A stretch of 40,090 nucleotides of DNA, taken from Gemmatimonadota bacterium. GTDB lineage: Bacteria > Gemmatimonadota > Gemmatimonadetes > Gemmatimonadales > GWC2-71-9. The notes beneath the pieces were generated by a model. It did not search any database, had not been told where the DNA came from, and worked only from the letters and a program-made list of their open reading frames with translations. This document shows, piece by piece, positions 2,890 to 10,730 of the stretch. Every line of letters starts with the position of its first letter. Within the stretch, counting starts at the first letter, position 1. Made by a program: the position numbers and the translations under genes. The stretch spans positions 1 through 40,090 of the forward strand of contig JAGGAG010000003.1 of assembly GCA_017889745.1 (NCBI GenBank), given 5' to 3'.

Positions 2890-3438
2890 TCAGCCCCGGC
2901 CCCGCGGAATGATCAATTCGCGGACCACCGCCAGCAGCAGCGAGGTCGGTCCCAGCAGCCTCGACAATCGGTGACTCCATCCGCCGCCCGCCCCTACCAC
3001 ACTCGAAAGCTGATCACGGAGCGGTTCGACTATAGGGTCCGCCGGGGCGGCCGCATGATGCCTGTCGCCAGGTCCTCGGTGCGTGTCTGGATGGCGCGGT
3101 GTCCCTGTCGACAACGCACGGTCGAGCAACTGCTGAAGGGTGTGCTCACGGAGGAACGGCGCGCCTGCCGGAAATGGTGCGGTGGTCACCGAAACCTCGA
3201 GGCTGTCGAACCGCAGGCGCCGTCCCGGGAGCACGGCCGCGTTGGGCCAGAGCGCGCGCGCAGGCGGGGCCGGCTCGACATAGACCAGCCAGGAGGTGCC
3301 GGAACCGTCGGTAAACGTCACGGAATGGGTCAACGGGTTGCCCCTGGCGAATGGCGGCTTCACCGGCGCGGGCACGGGGTCGGCGGGAAGTACGCGGGAC
3401 GCGCTGCGCTTGTTCGTCTTGGTGGTTCGAGTCTTCAT
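2890..3438 (-). CDS. Hypothetical protein
   Basis: 182-aa ORF with a globular-looking core (FTDGSGTSWLVYVE...RRLRFDS...LQQLLDRA). It fills the gap between the MCP and leuS. Confidence 0.55.
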   Translation of the reverse strand: MKTRTTKTNKRSASRVLPADPVPAPVKPPFARGNPLTHSVTFTDGSGTSWLVYVEPAPPARALWPNAAVLPGRRLRFDSLEVSVTTAPFPAGAPFLREHTLQQLLDRALSTGTPRHPDTHRGPGDRHHAAAPADPIVEPLRDQLSSVVGAGGGWSHRLSRLLGPTSLLLAVVRELIIPRGRG

Positions 3439-6701: not shown

Positions 6702-7874
6702 TTAATACGTCGGCACGCCCGGGTCCACGTCCTTGCTCCACCGCAAGATGCCGCCAGTGAGGTTCGACACCTTCCGAAAGCCGGCCGCGCGCAGCTGCGA
6801 CGCCGCGCGCAGGCTGCGCACGCCGCCCTTGCAGTAGACTACGATCTCCCGCGCGCTGTCGAGCGAGCCGAGTGTGGCTGGCAGCGTTGCCAGCGGCACC
6901 AGCCGTGCGCCCGGCAGCCGCGCGATGGCCCATTCCTGCGGTTCGCGCACGTCGATCAGGTCGAAATCGTCGCCGCGCCCGATGCGCGCGGCCAGCTGCT
7001 GCGGTGTCAGCTCGGGAATGGTCGCATCCACGCTGTCGTCCTCGTCGTTCAGCCCGCAGAACTGTTCGTAGTCGATCAGTGACTGTATCTCCCTGGTGCC
7101 GCACGCCGGACAGAGCGGGTCGCGCGCCAGCCTGAGCGTCCGGAACTGCATGCGCAGCGCGTCCACCAGCAGCAGCCGACCGATCAGCGGTTCGCCGATG
7201 CCGGTGAGCAGCTTGATCGCCTCCGTGGCCTGGATCACGCCGATGAGGCCGGGCAGCACGCCCAGTACGCCGCCTTCCGCGCAGCTCGGCACCATTCCCG
7301 GGGGCGGGGGCTCCCGAAAGAGGCAGCGGTAGCAGGGTCCGCTGTCGGTGGCGAGCACCGAGGCCTGTCCCTCGAACCGGAAGATGCTGCCATAGACATT
7401 CGGTTTCCCCAGAAGCACGCAGGCGTCGTTGACCAGATATCGCGTGGGGAAGTTGTCGGTCCCGTCGATGACGAGGTCGTACTCCCGTGCGATGTCGAGA
7501 GCGTTGGCCGAGGTGAACCGCGCCTCGTATGACTGCACCTCCACATGCGGGTTGAGCCCCTCGATCCGGTCACGCGCCGAGGCGAGCTTCGGGCGGCCCA
7601 CGTCGGCGGTGCTGTGGATGACCTGCCGCTGCAGGTTGGTCGCGTCGACCACGTCGAAGTCGACGATGCCGAGCCGGCCCACGCCCGCGGCGGCGAGGTA
7701 CAGGCCAAGCGGCGAGCCCAGGCCGCCTGCCCCCACGATGAGCACGCTCGAGCCCTTGAGCCGGCGCTGCGCGTCGAGGCCGAACTCCGGCAGGATCAGG
7801 TGCCGGCTGTAGCGGAGGATCTCGTCGTTGCCCAGCTCGGGCAGCGTTTCCGCGGCGATCGATGTTGCAGTCAT
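6702..7874 (-). CDS. moeB: MoeB/MoeZ-type adenylyltransferase-sulfurtransferase (ThiF plus C-terminal rhodanese)
   Basis: RYSRHLILPE, GAGGLG, TNLQRQ, DGTDNF, CYRC...CAEGG, CPAC; rhodanese domain DVREPQEW...YCKGGVRS. Confidence 0.95.
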   Translation of the reverse strand: MTATSIAAETLPELGNDEILRYSRHLILPEFGLDAQRRLKGSSVLIVGAGGLGSPLGLYLAAAGVGRLGIVDFDVVDATNLQRQVIHSTADVGRPKLASARDRIEGLNPHVEVQSYEARFTSANALDIAREYDLVIDGTDNFPTRYLVNDACVLLGKPNVYGSIFRFEGQASVLATDSGPCYRCLFREPPPPGMVPSCAEGGVLGVLPGLIGVIQATEAIKLLTGIGEPLIGRLLLVDALRMQFRTLRLARDPLCPACGTREIQSLIDYEQFCGLNDEDDSVDATIPELTPQQLAARIGRGDDFDLIDVREPQEWAIARLPGARLVPLATLPATLGSLDSAREIVVYCKGGVRSLRAASQLRAAGFRKVSNLTGGILRWSKDVDPGVPTY

Positions 7875-7878
7875 GAGT

Positions 7879-8154
7879 TCATCCCCCGGCGATGGCGGGC
7901 ACGATGATCAGCTCGTCACCGTCCCGCACCACGGTGGCGAAGCCACCGGTGAAGCGAATGTCCTCGTCGTTCAGGTAGAACGTCACGAAGGAATACGGGT
8001 TGCCCTGCTCGTCGCGCAGGCGAGGGCCAAGCTGGGGAAAACGACCGGCGACATCGGACACCACGTCGCCCACCGTGGCGCCGCTGGCCTCAATGGTGCG
8101 GGCGCCGTCCGTGAGGCGGGTCAGGACGGCCGGCAGGGACAGCGTGACTGACAT
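7879..8154 (-). CDS. MoaD/ThiS/CysO-family ubiquitin-like sulfur carrier protein
   Basis: 91 aa from ATG 8154, with SD GAGGAGG upstream; C-terminus DGDELIIVPAIAGG ends in di-glycine. Confidence 0.92.
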   Translation of the reverse strand: MSVTLSLPAVLTRLTDGARTIEASGATVGDVVSDVAGRFPQLGPRLRDEQGNPYSFVTFYLNDEDIRFTGGFATVVRDGDELIIVPAIAGG

Positions 8155-8167
8155 GATGGAACCCTCC

Positions 8168-9430
8168 TCAGCGTGAAGATGGCGACGTGCGCGCCACGAG
8201 ATCCGCGACGTCGCGGAGGCGGGGTGCCAGTACCGGTGCCTCGCCCAGCGAACCACTCAAGGCCTCGACCGTCTTGAGGCCGTTACCCGTAATGCACAAC
8301 ACGACCTCGTCGTTCGGGCGGAAGTGACCCTGGCGCGCCAGTTCGAGCGCGCTCGCCAGGGTGACGCCGCCCGCCGTCTCGGTGAAGATGCCCGCCGTCT
8401 CGGCGAGCAGCAGGATGCCCCTGACCAGCTCGGCGTCACTGACGCTCGCGGCCCATCCGCCCGACTGGCGGATCGACTCCGCCGCGTACGCGCCATCAGC
8501 CGGACTGCCGATCGCGATTGACCGGGCGATCGTGTCCGGGATCTCCGGGATGAGCTGCCCGTCGCCGCGCTCAACCAGGCGTACGATCGGCGCGCATCCC
8601 GACGCCTGGGCGCCGTAGAGGCGCGGGAGCTCTCCCTCCACCAGTCCGGCCGACAGGAACTCCCGGAATCCCTTGCCGAGCTTGCTCACCAGCGATCCGC
8701 CCGCCATCGGGGCCACCACCGCGGTGGGAAACCGCCAGCCGAGCTGCTCGGCGATCTCGAAGGCGAAGGTCTTCGATCCCTCACCGTAGTAGGAACGCAG
8801 GTTGACGTTGACGATGCCCCACCCGAAGCGGTCCGCAACCTGGGCGCACAGGCGGTTCACGTCGTCGTACGTTCCCCGGATCCGCACCAGGTTGGGCGCG
8901 TACACTGACGTGCCCACCACCTTGCCGTACTCGAGGTTGTCGGGAATGAAGATCCACGCCGGCAGGCCGGCGCGCGCCGCCTGCGCGGCGACCGCATTGG
9001 CAAGGTTGCCGGTGGAGGCGCAGCCCACGGTGTCGAGGCCAAACGCCGCCGCGGCATTAATGGCGGCGGCAACGACGCGATCCTTGAACGACAGGCTCGG
9101 GTGCGATACGGCATCATTCTTTACCCACACGCGCGCAACGCCGAGAAGCGGTGCCAGCCTCGGCACTTCGACCAGCGGGGTGAAGCCGGTGTCGGGGGAG
9201 TACGGCGGGTCGCCCTCGAGCGGCAGCCACTCGCGGTAGCGCCACAACGACGGCCCCCGCGAGGCGATCTCCTCGCGGGTGGGCAGGCGCCGGGCGGCAT
9301 CGTAGCGCGGCTCGAGGGGTCCCAGGCATTCGGCGCAGATGGCAACGGGCGCCGCATCCGTCTCGGCGCCGCAATTGCGGCAGCGAAGCGGCAGCGCGCG
9401 CACCCGGGGGGAAACAGCAACGGCGGTCAT
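8168..9430 (-). CDS. thrC: Threonine synthase-like PLP enzyme (fold type II); probably O-phosphohomoserine sulfhydrylase-type given context
   Basis: N-terminal CRNC/CAEC, PLP-lysine motif SLSFKDR, CASTGNLA, EGSKT, PMAGGSL, TGNGLKT. The family call is secure; the exact function is inferred. Confidence 0.85.
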   Translation of the reverse strand: MTAVAVSPRVRALPLRCRNCGAETDAAPVAICAECLGPLEPRYDAARRLPTREEIASRGPSLWRYREWLPLEGDPPYSPDTGFTPLVEVPRLAPLLGVARVWVKNDAVSHPSLSFKDRVVAAAINAAAAFGLDTVGCASTGNLANAVAAQAARAGLPAWIFIPDNLEYGKVVGTSVYAPNLVRIRGTYDDVNRLCAQVADRFGWGIVNVNLRSYYGEGSKTFAFEIAEQLGWRFPTAVVAPMAGGSLVSKLGKGFREFLSAGLVEGELPRLYGAQASGCAPIVRLVERGDGQLIPEIPDTIARSIAIGSPADGAYAAESIRQSGGWAASVSDAELVRGILLLAETAGIFTETAGGVTLASALELARQGHFRPNDEVVLCITGNGLKTVEALSGSLGEAPVLAPRLRDVADLVARTSPSSR

Positions 9431-9463
9431 GCCGGTATCCTTGTCGCCCGACTGGCGGCGACG

Positions 9464-9496
9464 AAAAAAAGCGCCCGCGGCAACGAGGCGCGGACG
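9464..9496 (-). terminator. Intrinsic terminator in the thrC-like leader (riboswitch expression platform)
   Basis: Minus strand reads CGTCCGCG-cctcgttgc-CGCGGGCG-C-TTTTTTT: an 8-bp stem (one G-U pair) plus a U7 tract, between the aptamer and the start codon. Confidence 0.75.
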
Positions 9497-9500
9497 TCTC

Positions 9501-9552
9501 GCTTTTTAGCATTTGTTTAACGTGGCTGCAATACGCGGCAAATGACCACGAA
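9501..9552 (-). ncRNA. SAM-II (SAM-alpha) riboswitch aptamer
   Basis: Minus strand reads TCGTGGTCATTTGCCGCGTATTGCAGCCACGTTAAACAAATGCTAAAAAGC(G). P1 is CGTGGT/GCCACG, L1 contains AUUU, and GUAUUGCA can form the pseudoknot with UGCUAAAAA. This matches the SAM-II consensus by eye. Confidence 0.85.
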
Positions 9553-9568
9553 TCAGTTGTCGTAATGA

Positions 9569-9597
9569 GAGATACGTGGAACCGGTGTGGCTGTCAA
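9569..9597 (-). promoter_or_regulatory. Putative sigma70 promoter for riboswitch-thrC operon
   Basis: TTGACA (9597-9592), a 17-nt spacer, then TATCTC (9574-9569), about 17 nt upstream of the aptamer. Confidence 0.55.
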
Positions 9598-9614
9598 GCT
9601 GGGATGCGGCAGCC

Positions 9615-10730
9615 CTATAGCAACTTCACGATCCATTCTCCCACCACGTAGCCGATCCCGGCCACGCCGAGTCCTACGAGGAACATGTCCATCCCGCTAC
9701 GGACCACGCCGCGCCCGGTAAAGAAGCTCCTCGCCGCGCCGACCGCGAAGTGGCTCAGCATCGCGAGCGCGAACGACGTCCAGATGACCAGCGGTCCGCG
9801 GCCGAAGAAGAACGGCGCCACGGGGATGAACGCACCCAATGCCGTGGCGGTACCGGTGACCCAGGCCTCCCGCCTCGGAGTGCTCGTGGCCTCGCCGATT
9901 CCGAGTTCCTCGCGCACCTTCTCGGCCAGCGCGCGCTCCGGGTCCTTCATCACTTCGGCGGCCAGCGCGTCGGCCTGGGCCGCGGGGATGCCCTTGGCCT
10001 GGTAGATGAGGCTCAATTCCTCGCCCTCGAGTTCGGGCATGAGCTTGATCTCGTCGCGCTCCATGGCGATCTCGTGCTCGAAGACCTCCCGCTCGCTCTT
10101 CGCGGCGAGGTAGCCCGACGACCCCATCGAGAGCGCATCAGCCACCATACCGGCCACGCCGGCCACCAGCACCGCATGGCTCCCCAGGTTGGCGCCCTGC
10201 GCGCCGATCATGCCGGCCACCAGGCCGAAGTTGGCGGTGAGTCCGTCGTTGAAGCCGTACACCACGTTCCGGAGGAACCCGCCGGCACCCGTCTTGTGCC
10301 ACGGCTCGGCGGCGCCCCCGCCGATGGCCGCGAGCCGTTCCGCGTGTTCCTTGGACTCGCGCGCCAGCTTGAGCGCCGTCGGCCCCGCCGCGCCCTCGGG
10401 CGCCTCGCGATAGAGCGAGAGGTAGCTCTTCACCTCTCGGCCCTCTTCCTCCAGCAGCAGCGGCAGCACCACGCCGGGGCCGATGCGCCGCGCCACCCAC
10501 GCACGGATCCGTGCGTCCCGGGAAGGTGGCGGCACTTTCACGGTGTGCCCCTGCTCGGTGAGCAGCGTCTGCCACGCTTCGACGTGCCGGTCCTCGACCT
10601 CCGCCAACTGTCCGTAAATCTTCGAGCGGCCGGGATCACGCTCGGCCTGTGCCAACTCGCGGTACAGAAACGCCGCGTCGGCCTCGTCGGCGAGGTGGTG
10701 CAGCCAGTCGGCGGGAGGAGCCTGAGTCAT
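9615..10730 (-). CDS. VIT1/CCC1 iron transporter with N-terminal rubrerythrin/ferritin-like domain
   Basis: N-terminal EADAAFLY...EVEDRH...ESKEH di-iron-like motifs; VIT1 motifs LRNVVYGFNDGL and ALSMGSSGYLAAKSE. Confidence 0.9.
   Translation of the reverse strand: MTQAPPADWLHHLADEADAAFLYRELAQAERDPGRSKIYGQLAEVEDRHVEAWQTLLTEQGHTVKVPPPSRDARIRAWVARRIGPGVVLPLLLEEEGREVKSYLSLYREAPEGAAGPTALKLARESKEHAERLAAIGGGAAEPWHKTGAGGFLRNVVYGFNDGLTANFGLVAGMIGAQGANLGSHAVLVAGVAGMVADALSMGSSGYLAAKSEREVFEHEIAMERDEIKLMPELEGEELSLIYQAKGIPAAQADALAAEVMKDPERALAEKVREELGIGEATSTPRREAWVTGTATALGAFIPVAPFFFGRGPLVIWTSFALAMLSHFAVGAARSFFTGRGVVRSGMDMFLVGLGVAGIGYVVGEWIVKLL

Follow-up and report, generated by a model that had tools for sequence, protein, structure and literature searches.

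We analyzed a 40,090-nucleotide (nt) stretch of DNA from a bacterium of the phylum Gemmatimonadota (positions 1 to 40,090 of contig JAGGAG010000003.1, assembly GCA_017889745.1; hereafter the window) and describe here the leader that lies on its minus strand, bounded by the stop codon of a VIT1-family gene (9615) and an ATG at 9430. Judged from its sequence, this locus is a SAM-II riboswitch (SAM, S-adenosylmethionine) with a transcription terminator, placed upstream of a likely methionine-pathway operon in a non-proteobacterial soil or wetland bacterium. We consider that it is a bona fide SAM-II riboswitch and most likely a transcriptional OFF switch for an operon of a ThrC paralogue, a ThiS-like gene and a MoeZ-like gene, and we give this proposal as a whole a probability of about 0.75. 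The SAM-II class and the aptamer-terminator layout are already known, and what is known of the class itself is unchanged by this locus; the host phylum and the regulated operon are without a report in the literature searched.

Aptamer and terminator in the leader

The whole window was scanned with cmscan at Rfam gathering thresholds, and positions 9400-9640 were scanned permissively in addition. RF00521 (SAM_alpha), found at 9487-9559 on the minus strand with the full model covered (1-79), scored 40.8 bits against a cut-off of 36 (E 5.9e-6) and was the sole Rfam family to reach its gathering score anywhere in the window. In the permissive scan the long-loop family RF01726 scored 27 bits, below its cut-off of 44, and SAM-V (RF01826) gave no match at E<=1 in 9400-9640. 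The original prediction, made from the letters alone, had placed a SAM-II aptamer at 9552-9501 and had proposed the Rfam SAM-II covariance model as a check; the match lies above the gathering score, so that the absence of a covariance-model hit is excluded. The predicted coordinates are right, because both stems, the terminator arms, the run of seven U (U7) and the ATG were read directly at those positions. The distance of about 70 nt that had been given from the aptamer 3' end to the start codon also agrees with what we found, namely 70 nt to the ATG at 9430.

The aptamer has the two helices expected of the class. In P1, the 5' strand CGUGGU (9545-9550) pairs with GCCACG (9521-9526), and in the P2 pseudoknot the strand CGCGUAUUGC, located within the P1 loop (9528-9537), forms 8 pairs with the complementary P2 3' strand at 9510-9500, the A-rich tail GCUAAAAAGCG (9500-9510). 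We counted the pairs of P1 and P2 in an alignment of 64 distinct aptamers from related loci. Standard pairs filled 96.5% of cells, versus 29-51% when the 3' partners were slid by 1-3 columns, and none of 500 shuffles of the alignment reached the observed pairing or covariation score. P1 was paired in 99.7% of cells and 5 of its 6 pairs never vary, leaving no covariation for those; being almost invariant, it therefore neither supports nor contradicts the structure. P2 was paired in 94.1% of cells, and its outermost pair, C9537-G9500, covaries (CG 29, GC 22, AU 1). In agreement with the Rfam consensus line, three core blocks (AUUU in the loop, UUGC, and GCUAAA in the tail) are invariant or nearly so. 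The defining features of SAM-II that are open to in silico checking are thus present, and we infer SAM binding from them.

With a score just 4.8 bits above the cut-off, the likeness to SAM-II could be suspected of being a chance match and the hairpin behind it of being an ordinary terminator of unrelated function. We regard this as very improbable, since the full model is covered, the invariant core nucleotides are common to 64 relatives, P2 covaries, methionine genes form the context, a probable promoter lies between the upstream gene stop at 9615 and the aptamer, and a covariance-model scan of 41 genomes from the order found SAM-II above the cut-off in 35.

Past the aptamer, a hairpin begins 3 nt beyond the P2 3' strand, with an 8-bp stem formed by the 5' arm CGUCCGCG (9489-9496) and the 3' arm CGCGGGCG (9472-9479), and is followed by the U7 tract, which was read directly at 9464-9470. 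Its calculated free energy is -13.8 kcal/mol, or -16.3 with a GAG/CUU extension. By these features, the GC-rich hairpin and U7 are a textbook intrinsic terminator between the aptamer and the open reading frame, 34 nt before the ATG. Direct reading confirms the hairpin with U7 that had been reported at 9496-9464 immediately after the aptamer.

A terminator in this position recurs in relatives. Among 84 unique aptamer instances from related loci, 75 are followed by a hairpin of at most -8 kcal/mol with a T-rich tract, although some of the distal calls among the 75 are probably false (for example in locus L007, where the "terminator" lies inside a coding region); 63 start within 20 nt of GCUAAA. 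The arrangement of aptamer plus terminator, as read from these sequences, is conserved while its sequence is not, and it recurs beyond chance.

The Shine-Dalgarno sequence (SD) AAGGA lies at 9438-9442, 7 nt before the ATG. Sequestration of the SD by P2 was rejected, as it is 58 nt downstream of P2, and the view that the expression platform is a transcription terminator holds: an intrinsic terminator is present and the SD stands well beyond the aptamer. Between the U tract and the SD is a conserved 6-bp hairpin, GUCGCC-N8-GGCGAC (9443-9462), which abuts the SD; among same-genus leaders its stem is conserved and its loop variable. This hairpin offers a way in which SAM could act on translation, with the terminator secondary: SAM may alter ribosome access to the SD (9442-9438) through long-range structure such as the hairpin at 9462-9443. 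A SAM-II element acting on translation from 74 nt away is reported in a passage of Scheuer et al. 2022 (PMC9373788), and at least one relative without a terminator has GGAG directly past P2. However, the folds showed no complementarity of an aptamer strand to the SD region, and the SD is downstream of U7. We therefore consider translational or dual control of the window operon improbable.

The relative in question (L007:1508-1640), of the same family, carries its aptamer before a metH-type gene, with GGAG right after P2 and without a terminator. It looks like an SD-sequestering variant from its layout, and its only nearby in-frame start appears to be CTG.

The riboswitch is probably transcribed from a promoter of its own, to judge from a -35-like hexamer TTGACA, read directly at 9592-9597, and a -10-like hexamer TATCTC (9569-9574) located 17 nt past the -35, within the conserved GTATCTCT. 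Of 12 leader rows that share the type of the window's leader, 11 conserve CTTGACA and GTATCTCT, with a variable spacer between them; four pairs among these rows are identical sequence from two collections. Transcription would start at about 9562. The position fits the promoter a few nt before P1 described for SAM-II in Corbino et al. 2005 (PMC1273637).

Switching by the P2 strands

A terminator after SAM-II has precedents in Proteobacteria. Passages in the SAM-II discovery paper, which described the metA element (Corbino et al. 2005, PMC1273637), already report terminators after SAM-II in this phylum, and Barrick and Breaker 2007 (PMC2258182) call a terminator after SAM-II the commonest arrangement, a statement repeated by Scheuer et al. 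2022 (PMC9373788), who predict transcriptional control for Sinorhizobium meliloti metZ. A terminator-coupled SAM-II is therefore no departure, and the premise of the original prediction that SAM-II typically sequesters the SD was incomplete. Going by the relevant passages of these papers, experiments had not established by 2007 how SAM-II controls genes (PMC2258182), and studies of what it does to gene expression were still to come in 2022 (PMC9373788).

Similar to proteobacterial SAM-II elements with putative intrinsic terminators, the window element belongs to the same Rfam family, has an H-type pseudoknot of P1 and P2 with a promoter a few nt before P1, a terminator between P2 and the open reading frame, methionine genes downstream and a predicted OFF logic. 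Unlike the elements of alpha- and beta-Proteobacteria, it resides in a Gemmatimonadota host, before an operon of ThrC-like, ThiS-like and MoeZ-like genes. In the sources covered, neither the mechanism nor the antiterminator is established for the proteobacterial elements. SD-sequestering SAM-II elements share the aptamer architecture and the stabilization of P2 by SAM, but there the P2 3' strand contains the SD and regulation is translational, whereas in the window the SD stands 58 nt past P2, with a terminator in between. A further likeness is to preQ1-I, described in PMC2258182 as a small pseudoknot of the H type that sequesters its 3' tail once ligand is bound. The logic proposed here is the same, with a pseudoknot strand pairing with the terminator when ligand-free; ligand, family and sequence differ, and the analogy is one of mechanism only. 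The preQ1-I element of Bacillus subtilis queC reportedly has a terminator/antiterminator layout.

In our proposal, P2 (9537-9528 with 9510-9500) would keep both its strands occupied when SAM is bound, the hairpin 9496-9472 would form before U7, and RNA polymerase would stop 34 nt before the start codon. When SAM is absent, the P2 strands would be free to pair with parts of the terminator. In one option, the terminator 5' arm is buried when the tail, A9503-G9498, pairs with C9487-U9482 of the apical loop; in the other, the loop strand CCGCG (9538-9534) pairs with CGCGG (9479-9475). Either decoy pairing would delay formation of the terminator enough for read-through. SAM-dependent termination, the direction of the switch, and which decoy pairing, if either, works in the lineage are inferred.

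The principle was examined in a pool of all loci plus 120 metagenome stretches, from which 182 unique instances were obtained; in 167, a T tract delimits the platform. We searched between the tail and the T tract for a perfect 6-nt complement of the P2 5' strand hexamer (9539-9534 in the window). Instances with the hexamer GCCGCG carried their own complement, CGCGGC, in 89 of 99 cases and GGCGGC in none of the 99; those with GCCGCC carried theirs, GGCGGC, in 11 of 26 and CGCGGC in 1 of 26, with several others having GGUGGC. When the sequences were grouped into 43 clusters at 80% identity, a perfect complement was present in 17, versus 4.15 expected from dinucleotide shuffles. Among instances in which one hairpin could be assigned, the terminator 5' arm holds 70 perfect matches of the GCCGCG class. 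P2 cannot explain this covariation, because the covarying position (G9534 in the window) is unpaired in P2. A third class, GCGGCC, has its own complement in 0 of 16 instances and 14 contiguous pairs of the tail with the terminator apical loop (p=0.003-0.02). Pairing of the tail with the apical loop is what other families show, an example being locus L065 (14 pairs, p=0.003). These patterns argue that free P2 strands act as antiterminator strands in Gemmatimonadota.

Tentatively, they can be joined in a "pseudoknot swap", a reading that strikes us as possible and still rather doubtful. The P2 5' strand would have two alternative partners, the SAM-stabilized tail and a covarying decoy of 6 nt within the terminator 5' arm; in further lineages the tail would be the strand that swaps; and the window lineage would be derived, with a decoy for each P2 strand in the terminator apical loop or 3' arm. 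If true, this would be the first comparative model of SAM-II-driven termination, a matter left open in the passages of the literature covered. The covariation between aptamer strand and terminator in any case gives a concrete, testable antiterminator model, and is the most useful by-product of the analysis.

At the window locus itself there are two candidates. The CCGCG of the P2a 5' strand (9534-9538, within the hexamer GCCGCG at 9539-9534) has a 5-bp complement in CGCGG at 9479-9475, as had been noticed in the original prediction, which proposed that the former could compete for the latter. The tail can instead form the candidate antiterminator hairpin AGCGAG.CG-UCCG-CG.CUCGUU (9482-9503), with A9503-G9498 pairing C9487-U9482 and an inner CG/CG. 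A9503-G9500 of this hairpin also belong to P2, and its positions 9496-9489 are the terminator 5' arm, which it buries; it is the minimum free energy (MFE) element of a nascent transcript ending at 9480 (-7 to -8 kcal/mol). In a post hoc permutation over 27 representatives, pairing of the tail 3' half with the apical region gave p=0.029 and 0.035. As a candidate antiterminator here, the tail hairpin at least equals CCGCG:CGCGG.

Several points weigh against switching at this locus and against the proposal more widely. The CCGCG:CGCGG pairing reaches -10.7 kcal/mol, where dinucleotide shuffles average -13.1 (p=0.87), and in a comparison with other terminators it takes rank 17 of 27, so that of the competition proposed earlier the motifs and the 5-bp match are present and the principle holds in relatives, while here the pairing does not stand out. 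The complementarity of the tail hairpin is not above shuffles here either (p=0.23), and when the 27 representatives were permuted, the tail reached p=0.10 and the loop strand p=0.31. Whether or not the P2 strands are blocked, the MFE fold contains the terminator (-28.4 kcal/mol unconstrained, -22.0 blocked); since the terminator occurs in every equilibrium fold, any switching must be kinetic. The window lineage (6 of 78 instances) is the exception in the family, having a 5-nt complement in the 3' arm in place of a 6-nt one in the 5' arm, a geometry that is kinetically less favorable. As to the family counts, they come from related, non-independent sequences and therefore overstate independence; moreover, 92 of the 167 platforms were obtained via a pattern that fixes the tail as GCUAAAAAGCGA, and the counts of perfect complements without the pattern-selected loci are 13/22 and 2/14. 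The -10 hexamer is weak, matching TATAAT at 3 of 6 positions and lacking the T at position 6, and a consensus promoter scan whose rule calls for that T gave 0 sites here. The MFE of the whole leader (9600-9425), -57.8 kcal/mol, is uninformative (z=-1.43; 14 of 200 shuffles equal). Finally, in the passages of Scheuer et al. (PMC9373788) on S. meliloti metA, prediction yielded neither a SAM response of the terminator after SAM-II nor an antiterminator. On these sequences the antiterminator principle is supported for the family, and at the window locus it is a candidate mechanism.

The main rival to our proposal is that the aptamer is real and the terminator is a SAM-blind constitutive attenuator that caps expression and releases a riboswitch-containing small RNA, with SAM acting via transcript stability, Rho or a role in trans. 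The minimum-energy structure keeps the terminator whether the P2 strands are available or blocked, the decoy pairings at the locus are not above chance, and the metA terminator, from which the small RNA RA1/RA2 is described as arising (PMC9373788), sets a precedent. Yet the metA terminator follows a start codon, whereas that of the window begins 3 nt past P2; a SAM-blind terminator has no need of the covariation between aptamer strand and terminator seen in relatives; and there is no SD at the aptamer 3' end to provide a second output. We consider a SAM-blind attenuator unlikely, though less so than translational control, and favor SAM-responsive termination at the locus.

On the plus strand, a terminator-like site at 9484-9501 was considered and rejected. 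It is the mirror image of the tail hairpin together with the tail A tract, and no plus-strand gene ends there.

Variants of the platform were seen in other loci. In a same-genus leader of a ThrC-like gene (L030:1508-1620), the tail AGCGA pairs with UCGCU to close a long hairpin at its base; this hairpin has no good U tract, and its 5' arm carries the majority-type CGCGGC complement. One family, seen in L036, L038, L075 and L098-L100 (66-94 nt past the tail) and in many metagenome loci fetched by pattern, has two hairpins in series past the aptamer; the first has an interrupted U tract and the second is a strong terminator, GCGGCCGCUCAGCUGAGCGGCCGUUUU.

RNA libraries were also consulted. Six runs had small shares of the stretch, and the four that were examined yielded contigs only. 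One 192-nt contig (X15) spans 9293-9484, including the U tract and the start codon, with 0 differences; its strand and ends are unseen and DNA carry-over is possible, so it is compatible with read-through and proves nothing. In another run (X17, record 6), a 778-nt contig matches the aptamer core only (9511-9550), with 4 differences and unlike flanks, and is presumably another organism's SAM-II leader.

The regulated operon and a methionine regulon

Three minus-strand genes follow the leader. The first (8168-9430) encodes a 420-amino-acid ThrC-family enzyme dependent on pyridoxal phosphate (PLP), a candidate MetM-like homocysteine synthase (PF00291, 211 bits; TIGR00260, 231 bits versus a cut-off of 167). 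The second (7879-8154; ATG at 8154, SD GAGGAGG) encodes a 91-amino-acid sulfur carrier of the ThiS/MoaD fold (PF02597, 44.3 bits) with the C-terminus ...AIAGG*. The third (6702-7874) encodes a MoeZ/MoeB-like adenylyltransferase with a C-terminal rhodanese domain (ThiF-family PF00899, 275 bits; PF00581, 71 bits), whose best scores are 510 bits with the MoeZ model NF005902, below its cut-off of 647, and 462.5 bits with the MoeB model NF006444, above its cut-off of 449.

All homologues of the first gene's product that bear a database name are called "threonine synthase", and the Protein Data Bank has only ThrC structures as relatives (best 2zsj, E 2.9e-52). The genome contains three thrC-family loci, one on contig C141 with 269 bits, the window gene with 232 bits and one on contig C55 with 143 bits. 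As there are two further loci, one of which scores higher, the riboswitch-controlled copy is a paralogue; the choice of one copy as the housekeeping threonine synthase is presumptive.

The gene content resembles a route in Streptomyces, for which Table 2 of the GapMind 2026 paper (PMC13759103) lists MetM, MetO and MoeZ, with homocysteine synthesis dependent on a MetO thiocarboxylate. The metM gene of S. albulus has an upstream SAM riboswitch, of a class not stated in the passage concerned (PMC12172450, which cites Hasebe et al.). Likened by gene content, the two sets are the same, each having a PLP enzyme of the ThrC family, a small sulfur carrier and an activating enzyme of the MoeZ type; the differences are that no Mec-type hydrolase gene is visible in the window operon and that its first gene bears the database name "threonine synthase". 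By analogy with the MetM/MetO route, the operon probably makes homocysteine via a protein thiocarboxylate. The riboswitch is the best available evidence that the annotated "threonine synthase" is a methionine-pathway enzyme working with a sulfur carrier, a reading that corrects a routine annotation across many Gemmatimonadales genomes.

We then considered the first genes past 39 related aptamers. Most numerous were metH-type methyltransferases and ThrC-like PLP enzymes (11 each), followed by methylenetetrahydrofolate reductase (MTHFR; 5), PanB-like proteins (5) and aminotransferases (4), with single cases of a MetY/Z-type enzyme, a homoserine dehydrogenase, and ThiS plus ThiF. By these assignments, the genes fit a methionine regulon. 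If the pseudoknot-swap reading is true, a MetM/MetO-like operon and a PanB-like gene would join the methionine regulon of the phylum.

The PanB homologues (PF02548, ketopantoate hydroxymethyltransferase) were unexpected. They lie directly behind SAM-II in five Gemmatimonadales loci (L036:700-1605, L043:1923-2912, L069:465-1454, L090:2117-2995 and L094:2084-2980), with a ThrC-like gene further downstream.

In a group of Gemmatimonadaceae loci (L055-L062), several of the spacers between the MoeZ-like stop and the ThrC-like start, located in the 200 nt upstream of position 3001, are filled with tandem 7-nt repeats (for example units of GAGTTGG or GGTTTGAC). The gene order in these repeat-bearing loci is reversed relative to the window.

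Host and spread of SAM-II in the phylum

The source genome is a metagenome-assembled genome (MAG) of the Gemmatimonadales, 2.79 Mb in size and 77% complete, and the window is its contig C223. By identity (93, 92 and 90%), the downstream protein has its nearest named relatives in MAGs of uncultured Gemmatimonadales bacteria, and 77 among the best 80 loci with a related downstream protein bear Gemmatimonad* titles; the source names of homologues agree. Because its nearest named relatives are of this kind, the host is non-proteobacterial, as had been supposed from the letters.

SAM-II is widespread in this phylum. In an even sample of the phylum, it was detected at E<=0.001 in 107 of 151 genomes and above the cut-off in 101 of 151, tallies that take in two unpublished genomes, G086 and G124 (105/149 and 99/149 without both). 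By family, it was present in 65 of 71 genomes of f1 and all 31 of f2, and nearly lacking in f7 (1/16) and f10 (0/13). Our literature search, which did not extend to Rfam species lists, found no paper joining Gemmatimonad* with SAM-II, and Gemmatimonad* is absent from the text of McCown 2017 (PMC5473149), the distribution figure of which was not covered. Five papers pair Acidobacteria with SAM-II and, going by their listed entries, deal with other matters. In the Gemmatimonadota, SAM-II elements coupled to terminators form a set that is large and diverse and has so far gone undescribed.

The same MAG has a second SAM-II-like element on the plus strand of another contig (C78:9832-9905, equal to L002:1501-1574), which at 32.8 bits is below the cut-off of 36. 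A terminator comes next and then an MTHFR (metF-type) gene; the terminator loop contains a 6-bp complement of the tail (p=0.003 versus shuffles).

A variant aptamer was also found in a Blastocatellia MAG of the Acidobacteriota (L104:2839-2891). Its tail reads UCUAAAC in place of GCUAAAA, and it is followed by a strong terminator and then a ThrC-like gene. Seven nt of the tail, CUGUCUA, are complementary to UAGGCAG of the terminator, within about 100 nt downstream.

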